From NCBI RefSeq assembly GCF_965279625.1, contig NZ_OZ257251.1, positions 2,282,061 through 2,346,060 on the forward strand: DNA of 64,000 bases, written 5' to 3'. The stretch's first letter is position 1. Every line of letters starts with the position of its first letter. A model generated the notes under the pieces. It worked only from the letters and a program-made list of their open reading frames with translations. It did not search any database and was not told where the DNA came from. The DNA is from Reyranella sp. (GTDB lineage Bacteria; Pseudomonadota; Alphaproteobacteria; Reyranellales; Reyranellaceae). Below are positions 51,143-53,502 of the stretch, piece after piece. The translations under genes were made by a program, and so were the position numbers.

Positions 51143-53188
51143 CTAGAACAGAAAATACCTTTGCGCCATCGGCAGCGACGTCGCCGGCTCGCAGGTCAAC
51201 AGCTCGCCATCGGCCCGCACCTCGTAGGTCTCGGGATCGACGTCGATCTTCGGGCAGGTCGAATTGTGGATCATGTTCTTCTTGCCGATCTTGCGCGTGC
51301 CCTTCACCGGAAGCAGCGAGCGGGTGAGTCCCCACTTCTTGGCGACGCCCTGGGTAATGGCGGCCTGGCTGACGAACAGCACGGGACTCATCACCAGGCT
51401 GCGCCCGAAAGCGCCGAACATCGGCCGGTAGTGGACCGGCTGCGGCGTCGGGATCGAGGCATTGGGATCGCCCATGGGAGCCGCGACGATCGAGCCGCCG
51501 ATCAGCACCATGTCGGGCTTGGCGCCGAAGAAGGCCGGCGACCACATCACGAGATCGGCGCGCTTGCCGACTTCGACCGAGCCGACATGCTTGGCGATGC
51601 CGTGGGTGATGGCGGGATTGATCGTGTACTTGGCGACGTAGCGCTTGACGCGGAAATTGTCGTTGTCGCCCTTCTCCTCCTTCAGGCGGCCGCGCTGCTT
51701 TTTCATCTTGTCGGCGGTCTGCCAGGTGCGGATCACGACCTCGCCGACCCGGCCCATCGCCTGGCTGTCGGACGACATCATCGAGAAGGCGCCCATATCG
51801 TGGAGGATATCCTCCGCCGCGATGGTCTCCTTGCGGATGCGGCTCTCGGCGAAGGCCACGTCTTCCGGGATGGCGGCATCGAGATGATGACAGACCATCA
51901 GCATGTCGAGATGCTCGTCCACGGTGTTCACCGTGTAGGGCATCGTCGGATTGGTCGAGCTGGGCAGGACGTTCTTCTCGCCGGCCAACCGGATGATGTC
52001 GGGCGCATGGCCGCCGCCCGCGCCTTCCGTGTGGAAGGTCGCGATGGTGCGGCCCTTGAAGGCGGCGCGCGTCGTCTCGACGAAGCCCGACTCGTTCAGC
52101 GTATCGGTGTGGATCGCGACCTGGACGTCGTAGCGGTCGGCGACGCTGAGGCAATTGTCGATGGCGGCGGGCGTGGTGCCCCAGTCCTCGTGCAGCTTGA
52201 GGCCGCAGGCGCCGCCCTCGATCTGCTCCTTGAGGCCGGCCGGCTTGCTCGTGTTGCCCTTGCCGAAGAAGCCGAGATTCATCGGCAAGCCTTCGGCGGC
52301 CTGCAGCATGCGGCCCATGTGCCAGGGGCCGGGCGTCACGGTCGTCGCCAGCGTGCCATGCGCCGGGCCGGTGCCGCCGCCCATCATCGTGGTCACGCCG
52401 CTGTAGAGCGCGTCGTCGATCTGCTGCGGGCAGATGAAATGGATGTGGCAGTCGATGCCGCCCGCGGTGATGATCTTGCCTTCGGCCGCGATCGCTTCGG
52501 TGCCGGGACCGATGATGATGTCGACACCCGGCTGGACGTCGGGGTTGCCGGCCTTGCCGATCGCGACGATCACCCCGCCCTTGAGGCCGATATCGGCCTT
52601 CACGATGCCCCAGTGATCGACGATCAGCGCATTGGTGATGACGGTGTCGACGGCGCCCTGCGCGCGCGTGCGCTGGCTCTGGCCCATGCCATCGCGAATC
52701 ACCTTGCCGCCGCCGAACTTCACTTCCTCGCCGTAGATCGTGTGGTCCTTCTCGACCTCGATGAAGAGCTCGGTATCCGCGAGCCGCACCTTGTCGCCCA
52801 CGGTGGGACCGAACATGTGGACATAGGCCGAGCGCGAGATGCGGGTCGCGCCTTCGTTCGAGGGTCCAACCTTGGCGATCGGTCCCAGCTTGCCGCCGAC
52901 GCGCCCCTGGAAGCCATGGCTCTCGCGCCCACCCATGTAGGGCGTGAGCCGCACGGTGCGCGACTGGCCCGGCTCGAAGCGCACGGCGGTGCCGGCGGCG
53001 ATGTCGAGCCGCATGCCCTTGGTCCGCTTGCGGTCGAACTTCAGCGCGTCGTTGGTCTCGAAGAAATGATAGTGGCTGCCGACCTGGATCGGCCGGTCGC
53101 CGGTATTGGCGACCTCGATGGTGATCGGGTTGCGGCCCTTGTTGAGCTCGAGTTCGCCGTCGGCCGGAAGGATCTCACCTGGAATCAT
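51143..53188 (-). CDS. ureBC: Urease beta-alpha fusion subunit (UreB + UreC in one 681-aa ORF)
   Basis: aa 1-101 are UreB ([20 protein letters not shown]), then a 12-aa linker and full UreC ([45 protein letters not shown]). RBS GAGGAG before ATG 53188. Confidence 0.93.
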
Positions 53189-53199
53189 GGCGTCTCTCC

Positions 53200-53502
53200 T
53201 CAACGAATCGGCGCATGGACGGTGACGAGCTTGGTGCCGTCGGGAAAGGTCGCCTCGACCTGGATTTCGGCCAGCATGTCGGCGATGCCGTCCATGACCT
53301 GGCCCCGCGAGATCACATGCGCTCCGTCGCGCATCAGGTCGGCGACCGAGCGGCCATCGCGCGCACCCTCGACGACAAAATCGGTGATCAAAGCCACGGC
53401 CTCGGGATAGTTGAGCTTCACGCCGCGCTCCAGGCGGCGGCGCGCCACAATGGCTGCCATGGCCACCAGCAGCTTGTCCTTCTCGCGCGGCGTCAGATTC
53501 AT
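53200..53502 (-). CDS. ureA: Urease gamma subunit
   Basis: [11 protein letters not shown]...[14 protein letters not shown], 100 aa. Confidence 0.97.

Follow-up and report, generated by a model that had tools for sequence, protein, structure and literature searches.

A urease gene set with a free gamma subunit and a fused beta-alpha subunit in Reyranella sp.

How many polypeptides does a bacterial urease need, and at which subunit borders can they be joined? The question is raised by the urease locus in a 64,000-nt stretch of DNA from Reyranella sp. (GCF_965279625.1, NZ_OZ257251.1 positions 2,282,061-2,346,060; the whole stretch is called the window in the following), which stems from a soil/freshwater bacterium related to Reyranella. 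In this locus the gamma subunit is encoded by its own gene, ureA, while the beta and alpha subunits share one reading frame, ureBC. The locus is best read as encoding a functional nickel urease of two polypeptides, free UreA and a UreBC fusion, which would be matured by the products of its own cluster and take on the ordinary urease fold (probability about 0.85).

The fused reading frame and the predicted enzyme

The ureBC gene (51143..53188) is a single 681-aa open reading frame (ORF) that starts with the ATG at 53188 and ends with a stop codon at 51143-51145. It is composed of a complete UreB (beta) domain at residues 1-101 (52886..53188), a linker of 12 codons (52850..52885) and a complete UreC (alpha) part at residues 114-681 (51143..52849), all on the minus strand. 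Urease_beta (PF00699, residues 3-99) stands directly before Urease_alpha (PF00449, 116-233) and Amidohydro_1 (PF01979, 239-566) in the Pfam annotation, Urease_gamma is absent from the ORF, and the arrangement is conserved across genomes. The NCBIfam families for “urease subunit beta” (residues 1-101) and “urease subunit alpha” (residues 115-681) both score above their curated cut-offs: 154 bits for NF009682 (1-101/104, cut-off 129) and 138 bits for TIGR00192 (cut-off 90.3) in the beta domain, 982 bits for TIGR01792 (cut-off 680) and 1052 bits for NF009686 (cut-off 354) in the alpha part, which places the latter in the alpha family of nickel urease, EC 3.5.1.5. The UreB C-terminus is intact through ...GGKL and is followed by the linker codons GGA CCG ATC GCC AAG GTT GGA CCC TCG AAC GAA GGC (52885-52850), which contain neither an in-frame stop nor an in-frame ATG, GTG or TTG. 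The next methionine is M125 (in HMFGP).

The gamma subunit is encoded separately by ureA (53200..53502, minus strand, 100 aa), which matches Urease_gamma over 1-99/99 and the equivalog NF009712 over 1-100/100 (166 bits, cut-off 123). ureA and ureBC lie in different frames and ureA is closed by its own TGA stop at 53200, so that gamma is not joined to beta. The spacer of 11 nt between the two genes (53189..53199, minus strand, GGAGAGACGCC) carries a Shine-Dalgarno-like GGAG ahead of the ureBC start. The Helicobacter-type gamma/beta model NF009671 reaches 140-152 bits with either ORF, against a cut-off of 243, and a eukaryote-type single chain is not encoded, as gamma has an ORF of its own. The window contains no further copy of ureB or ureC. 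The original prediction, made from the letters of the window, had described a separate ureA, a 681-aa fusion with a 12-aa linker free of stops and starts, intact nickel ligands and catalytic motifs, and a complete accessory set; profile matches and sequence agree with it on each of these points, the accessory genes being ureD, ureE, ureF and ureG.

Ureases bind nickel through H134, H136, the carbamylated K217, H246, H272 and D360, and use H219, D221, C319, H320 and R336 in catalysis (K. aerogenes numbering). When UreBC is aligned residue by residue with K. aerogenes UreC (1EJW_C, 8HCN_C), they are matched at an offset of +114 by H248/H250, K331, H333, D335, H360, H386, C433/H434, R450 and D474. 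They are invariant across an alignment of 53 sequences.

The AlphaFold2 model built with the 53-sequence alignment has a predicted template modelling score (pTM) of 0.88 and a mean predicted local distance difference test score (pLDDT) of 81.6, with ~72-85 in the linker. In a Foldseek comparison with the Protein Data Bank (PDB), the top match is jack bean urease 7KNS_A, which covers both domains with a query-normalised template modelling (TM) score of 0.94 and 58% identity; bacterial UreC chains alone reach 0.78, since they lack beta. According to this prediction, beta would dock on alpha in the way seen in other ureases. The enzyme would consist of two chains, the free UreA (gamma, 11 kDa) and UreBC (beta-alpha, ~73 kDa), and most likely is a conventional nickel urease with the presumed composition (UreA·UreBC)3. 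The path of the linker from the end of UreB to the start of UreC would follow that of the beta-alpha link in single-chain plant ureases, which would leave the fold and the active site those of an ordinary urease.

The ureB-ureC junction and its origin

The junction is crossed by independent data. Logan contigs from four independent runs cover it (52713-53000 or more) with zero indels and with 52883-52885 unchanged, so that no TGA separates the two parts at this position. Three of the runs (X1, X2, X4) show zero differences to the window, and the fourth (X5) shows 3 substitutions, the single one in the linker (CCC>CCT) being synonymous. When compared over window positions 52703-53071, the samples of X1, X2 and X4 also contain a second, ~90% identical contig. 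Its divergence prevents alignment of the 88 nt that surround the junction, but the length of this part is exactly equal. This contig presumably represents a co-occurring strain or a paralogue that is fused as well.

Four relatives (L001, L002, L003, L058; 88-91% identical) carry the same in-frame fusion with the linker G[PAS][IV]AKVGPSNEG. They comprise one uncultured alphaproteobacterium and three Reyranella metagenome-assembled genomes (MAGs), one of which is a closed 8.1-Mb chromosome. The relatives were taken from a scan of one genome per species of the Genome Taxonomy Database, which is biased to same-frame loci and gives examples rather than prevalence; among the matches listed, it also gave Neptuniibacter beside the four Reyranella-type examples. 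When the 12 linker codons of the five sequences are compared pairwise, 3-7 synonymous differences stand against 0-2 non-synonymous ones. The low non-synonymous change indicates that the constraint on the linker is no weaker than that on the adjoining codons of UreB and UreC, and the codon pattern shows purifying selection. Metatranscriptome contigs from freshwater and plastic-associated samples (~90% identical) also cross the junction with 0 gaps, and each linker difference listed for them is synonymous and lies at a third codon position. Public databases already contain the window protein, as part of a 675-member cluster at 90% identity, whose named members are assigned to Reyranella or “Enhydrobacter” and labelled “urease subunit alpha”.

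A continuous frame could also result from a sequencing or assembly error in which a real stop or frameshift between two truly separate genes was lost. Such artefacts exist in databases (P0340, P0351, P0361/L052, P0366, P0377, P0048, P0049, P0054, L083), where, on error-prone contigs, the end of UreB is read out of frame and continues into UreC. The window differs from these cases by its intact UreB C-terminus, by the concordance of four independent run assemblies at the junction, and by the same in-frame linker in four other genomes and several metatranscriptome contigs, whose divergence is dominated by synonymous changes. This leaves a vanishingly small chance for an error, and on the sequence evidence ureBC is a genuine and intact gene, with artefact and pseudogene excluded.

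The nearest split relatives, L081 (GCA_022843945.1, contig JALHMR010000002.1) and L082, are 83-85% identical in UreC and share the gene order ureD-A-(B-C)-E-F-G and the UreB end ...GKLG(G) with the same GGA glycine codon. Their DNA reads ...AAG CTG GGA GGC TGA GCC ATG GCG ACC CGC..., which translates into UreB ...KLGG*, a gap of one codon, and MATRISR, all in the same frame. The window, in contrast, reads ...AAG CTG GGA, the ten codons from CCG to GAA, and GGC GCG ACC CGC..., so that the stop and start that lie one codon apart in the split loci (TGA-GCC-ATG) are replaced by a continuous frame with ~10 extra codons. The split loci also lack the DUF3995 gene discussed below and carry the urt genes upstream, whereas these lie downstream in the window.

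From this alignment it follows that GGA (Gly102) is homologous to a UreB sense codon and not to a former TGA, that the former Met position is now Gly113, and that the two states differ by an indel of ~30 nt together with the loss of TGA-GCC-ATG, not by one substitution. A read-through by a single TGA>GGA change, as had been proposed from the first linker codon, is thereby ruled out, because GGA is sense Gly102 in L081 and L082. The linker had further been taken for former intergenic DNA because of its rare codons. GGA and GTT are indeed uncommon in the window genes (7.6% of Gly and 5.9% of Val codons), but both are private to the window genome, and the relatives use GGC/GGT and GTC at the same sites. 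The linker therefore seems to be old and conserved rather than a freshly recruited spacer. The linker length and a weak P..A....G-N motif recur in related fused lineages at 78-81% identity, so that the fusion probably predates the genus.

The fusion would have been created by in-frame joining of adjacent ureB and ureC genes, an easy step as in this family the ureC start commonly follows the ureB stop within a few codons and in the same frame. It appears to be old in the lineage, being common to the Reyranella clade and probably to neighbouring alphaproteobacterial lineages. As a general fusion route, stop loss and read-through of the spacer is the most plausible, since fusions elsewhere retain the former initiator Met.

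Recurrence and relation to known ureases

Hundreds of entries in databases, belonging to several groups of bacteria, show the same beta-alpha layout. In a full-protein search, 104 of the 120 best-scoring clusters at 90% identity combine PF00699, PF00449 and PF01979, none of them with PF00547, and the fused proteins among these 120 clusters are mostly 670-700 aa long. Among the named fused clusters are those of Defluviicoccus vanus, alpha proteobacterium BAL199, Thalassobaculum (T. fulvum, T. salexigens and strain OXR-137), Elstera cyanobacteriorum, Oceanobacter spp., “Ca. Thalassolituus haligoni”, Marinomonas algicola and MAGs of Polyangiaceae/Deltaproteobacteria; the fusion of Neptuniibacter marinus (L044) was confirmed on DNA. 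Partial fused proteins from Psychrobacter (three concordant), Alicyclobacillus, Paenibacillus and Myxococcota (MAGs) came from a search that used the junction region. A minority of the database “fusions” are frameshift artefacts with scrambled UreB C-termini, which any census must exclude, and a census in a library of 50%-identity representatives is uninformative, since it holds mostly fragments in which fused and split forms are inseparable.

The linker families of the fused clades are unrelated and differ in sequence and length. An uncultured alphaproteobacterial group carries PPPAFATASGGNS, Thalassobaculum carries PAVAKGQGNVPP, and the linkers of Oceanospirillales are acidic and rich in Ser/Thr. 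Several singleton fusions keep the former initiator Met (Defluviicoccus ...RSRPMPYKIDR, Alicyclobacillus ...GGLVMTREAY). In a neighbour-joining (NJ) tree of the UreC part, which is crude and includes partial sequences so that event counts are approximate, the fused sequences fall into at least 3 large clades plus singletons and are interleaved with split genes. Unrelated linkers and interleaved clades together suggest repeated independent fusions; the other fused lineages, which sit in different UreC clades, probably fused independently. The fusion of the window is neither rare nor recent. What stands of the “unusual” two-chain urease announced by the original prediction is a genuine gamma+(beta-alpha) gene set under purifying selection; its rarity does not stand. 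The prediction had also allowed that such fusions might already be widespread and described: they are widespread as sequences, and a description was not found in the searchable literature.

Each of the established architectures shares part of its layout with the window. Compared to the three-chain type of K. aerogenes and Sporosarcina pasteurii (2KAU, 1FWJ, 2UBP), the window UreC is 71-72% identical to K. aerogenes UreC, UreB aligns over 1-101 with that of K. aerogenes, and the nickel ligands and flap residues, the free UreA and the UreDEFG genes are alike. The difference is that UreB and UreC form one polypeptide with a 12-aa linker and that Gly113 stands in place of the Met with which UreC would start. 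The Helicobacter-type (gamma-beta)+alpha urease (1E9Z; NF009671) likewise consists of two structural polypeptides that derive from fused neighbouring ure genes, but there the gamma-beta junction is fused and alpha is free. The Helicobacter type has solved structures and a curated family of its own, whereas the beta-alpha type has neither. Helicobacter-type ureases are also common in Alphaproteobacteria such as Roseiarcus: fused gamma/beta subunits of 206 aa are very abundant in environmental Alphaproteobacteria (P0439-P0557; Roseiarcus fermentans etc.), and this architecture is therefore not peculiar to Helicobacter. The single-chain ureases of plants and fungi (jack bean 3LA4/7KNS, pigeon pea 4G7E) share the covalent beta-to-alpha connection, with the TM score and identity given above, but are eukaryotic and include gamma in the chain. 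Their connection spans ~30-35 residues (query 101/106 to chain ~235/263), compared to 12-14 in the window. The other bacterial fusions share with the window the series of Urease_beta, Urease_alpha and Amidohydro_1 and the absence of gamma, and have a full length of ~670-700 aa; those of Psychrobacter, Alicyclobacillus, Paenibacillus and Myxococcota are partial proteins only.

In agreement with the original prediction, which knew of no characterized gamma+(beta-alpha) enzyme, none was found in the PDB, NCBIfam or the searchable literature. Structure comparison finds three-chain, (gamma-beta)+alpha and single-chain ureases in the PDB but no beta-alpha chain, and the NCBIfam scan yields a model named “bifunctional urease subunit gamma/beta” but none for beta/alpha. 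In the full texts that can be searched without a subscription, no bacterial urease with fused beta and alpha subunits is described. Reviews give only the heterotrimer, the Helicobacter-type heterodimer and the single-chain form (PMC6077230, PMC3816311). The one remark found is that of a 2013 Cell paper, which states from STRING that in ureases “beta fuses with alpha” (PMC4009401); it may reflect the eukaryotic single chains. The layout is present at scale in databases and, as far as searchable, undescribed and uncharacterized; it is under-described rather than unique. Fused proteins are named “urease subunit alpha” by NCBI, and some are auto-named “Multifunctional fusion protein” by UniProt. 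In the Elstera protein cluster (P0321), one record has 685 aa (fused) and others have 587-588 aa as “urease subunit alpha”, and in E. cyanobacteriorum both lengths are tied to the same 107,903-nt contig, which indicates that gene callers treat beta-alpha fusions inconsistently.

The fused ORF could still give rise to two polypeptides, by internal initiation near the linker or by proteolysis within it, and thus to a conventional three-chain urease. By analogy the linker should lie at the surface, its pLDDT is moderate, and within the fused ORF of Elstera some annotation pipelines predict an “alpha” of 587-588 aa. An internal start is opposed by the absence of in-frame ATG, GTG or TTG codons from after codon 1 up to M125, by the loss of the conserved RISRSAY N-terminus that initiation at M125 would entail, and by the lack of Met in any Reyranella-clade linker. 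Cleavage is opposed by a linker that is more conserved than a disposable spacer needs to be, although a dedicated protease site might be conserved as well, and by the eukaryotic ureases, which keep the equivalent link uncut (7kns and 3la4 chains, 837-840 residues). A split product is consequently improbable, and a two-chain urease of UreA and UreBC is preferred. Several points weigh against this preference nonetheless: the two-chain product is deduced from sequence, post-translational cleavage or non-canonical internal initiation could still divide the chain, the number of independent fusion and fission events is approximate because of the crude NJ tree, and the closest split relatives are an indel of ~30 nt away instead of one base. 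The uninterrupted ORF, its domains, the conserved residues, the purifying selection on the linker, the wide recurrence and the match in fold are shown; the single 73-kDa chain in vivo, the stoichiometry, the enzyme activity and the route of origin are what we infer from the locus.

A further proposal is that the fusion is a functional adaptation that changes activation or regulation, for instance by limiting the motion of the UreB hinge on which UreDFG access depends, or a bacterial intermediate toward the eukaryotic single-chain ureases. Its repeated independent origin and long retention suggest that the fusion is at least not deleterious, and its linker is strongly conserved within the clade. 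In K. aerogenes, UreB leaves first on in vitro disassembly, and according to Marsh et al. the pathway of disassembly would not be preserved if alpha and beta were fused (PMC4009401); the fusion would hence alter the assembly pathway. Against an adaptation, split and fused genes are interleaved among close relatives (UreC 83-85% identical) and the ure gene set is equal, apart from the DUF3995 gene that is present in fused Reyranella-clade loci only, which together suggests near-neutrality. In plant ureases beta is tethered to alpha in the same way and homologs of UreD/F/G still activate the enzyme, so that such a tether is compatible with activation. Against an intermediate, no credible bacterial single-chain gamma-beta-alpha urease was verified among the Reyranella-related candidates: P0075 is a singleton that looks chimeric (Roseiarcus-type gamma/beta N-terminus, Reyranella-type junction), and the triple fusion P0482 (L083 3501-4289) comes from a contig full of errors, on which the ure genes are fragmented. 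An adaptive or intermediate role is therefore unlikely. Equally doubtful is its extended form, in which gamma+(beta-alpha) would be a distinct and recurrent third bacterial architecture, with a conserved structured linker that alters the assembly order and the UreDFG-dependent activation via the UreB hinge, and a plausible stepping stone to single-chain enzymes. If it were true, these ureases would provide a natural test of the UreB-gating model.

The gene cluster and the meaning of the fusion

The urease genes form a single co-directional and intact cluster on the minus strand in the order ureD-A-BC-E-F-(DUF3995)-G-hupE-urtABCDE, which comprises the full set for urea uptake, nickel supply and urease maturation. 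A promoter/terminator scan of the cluster gave no signal above background. The maturation genes are all present and intact by profile matches: ureD (53555..54373; Pfam UreD, E 1e-50) stands first, ureE (50532..51020; UreE_N and UreE_C) starts with the ATG at 51020 in an ORF that opens also at TTG 51038, ureF (49856..50560) matches Pfam UreF (E 1e-38), and ureG (48811..49434; start read from the sequence) encodes the Ni-GTPase (TIGR00101, E 2e-104). They are followed by the nickel permease gene hupE/ureJ (48222..48794; PF04955, E 1e-49) and by the genes of the urea ABC transporter UrtABCDE (42549..48194; TIGR03407, 03409, 03408, 03411, 03410, all above curated cut-offs). The ORFs listed for urtA (46824-48194), urtB (45132-46790), urtC (44014-45636), urtD (43247-44239) and urtE (42549-43526), all on the minus strand, have their true starts further in; in urtB, ~250 N-terminal residues precede the match to the UrtB permease, which begins at residue 259. 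In the proposed enzyme system, UreD/E/F/G would carry out maturation, HupE/UreJ would supply nickel and UrtABCDE urea, and its likely role is the assimilation of urea nitrogen.

The small membrane protein gene DUF3995 (49431..49847, minus strand; PF13160) sits between ureF and ureG and overlaps the latter in an ATGA start/stop. It is kept in the Reyranella-clade urease loci L001, L002, L003 (two copies) and L066 and is missing from the nearest split-type loci L081 and L082. On the other side of the cluster, ureD adjoins the divergent greB (54272-54955, plus strand), which is the same neighbor as in the Reyranella-like locus L083. The spacer between ureBC and ureE contains a palindromic hairpin (51048..51120, minus strand) with a 27-bp stem, which was found by pattern search and RNA folding. 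It is a perfect palindrome with the arms TCATCCCGAGCG[C/T]AGCGAGGGA, folds as RNA with -60.8 kcal/mol (z -9.3), and a related arm occurs at window 23612-23633. The hairpin resembles REP/MITE-type repeats and might serve as a stabilizer or attenuator of the mRNA between the structural and the accessory ure genes.

None of these findings alters the known function of urease; the locus represents an under-described architectural variant and not a new enzyme. Beside the three-chain, the Helicobacter-type two-chain and the one-chain form, gamma+(beta-alpha) is a fourth architecture, one without an entry in reviews or curated models, and it is common in Reyranella-like soil and freshwater Alphaproteobacteria, marine Thalassobaculum, Oceanospirillales and others. 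As the fused proteins are named “urease subunit alpha”, tools for pathway completeness that seek a separate ureB could score such organisms as urease-incomplete. The natural tether at the C-terminus of UreB offers a ready test of the role of UreB mobility in the assembly of the metallocentre and of the effect of fusion on the assembly order.

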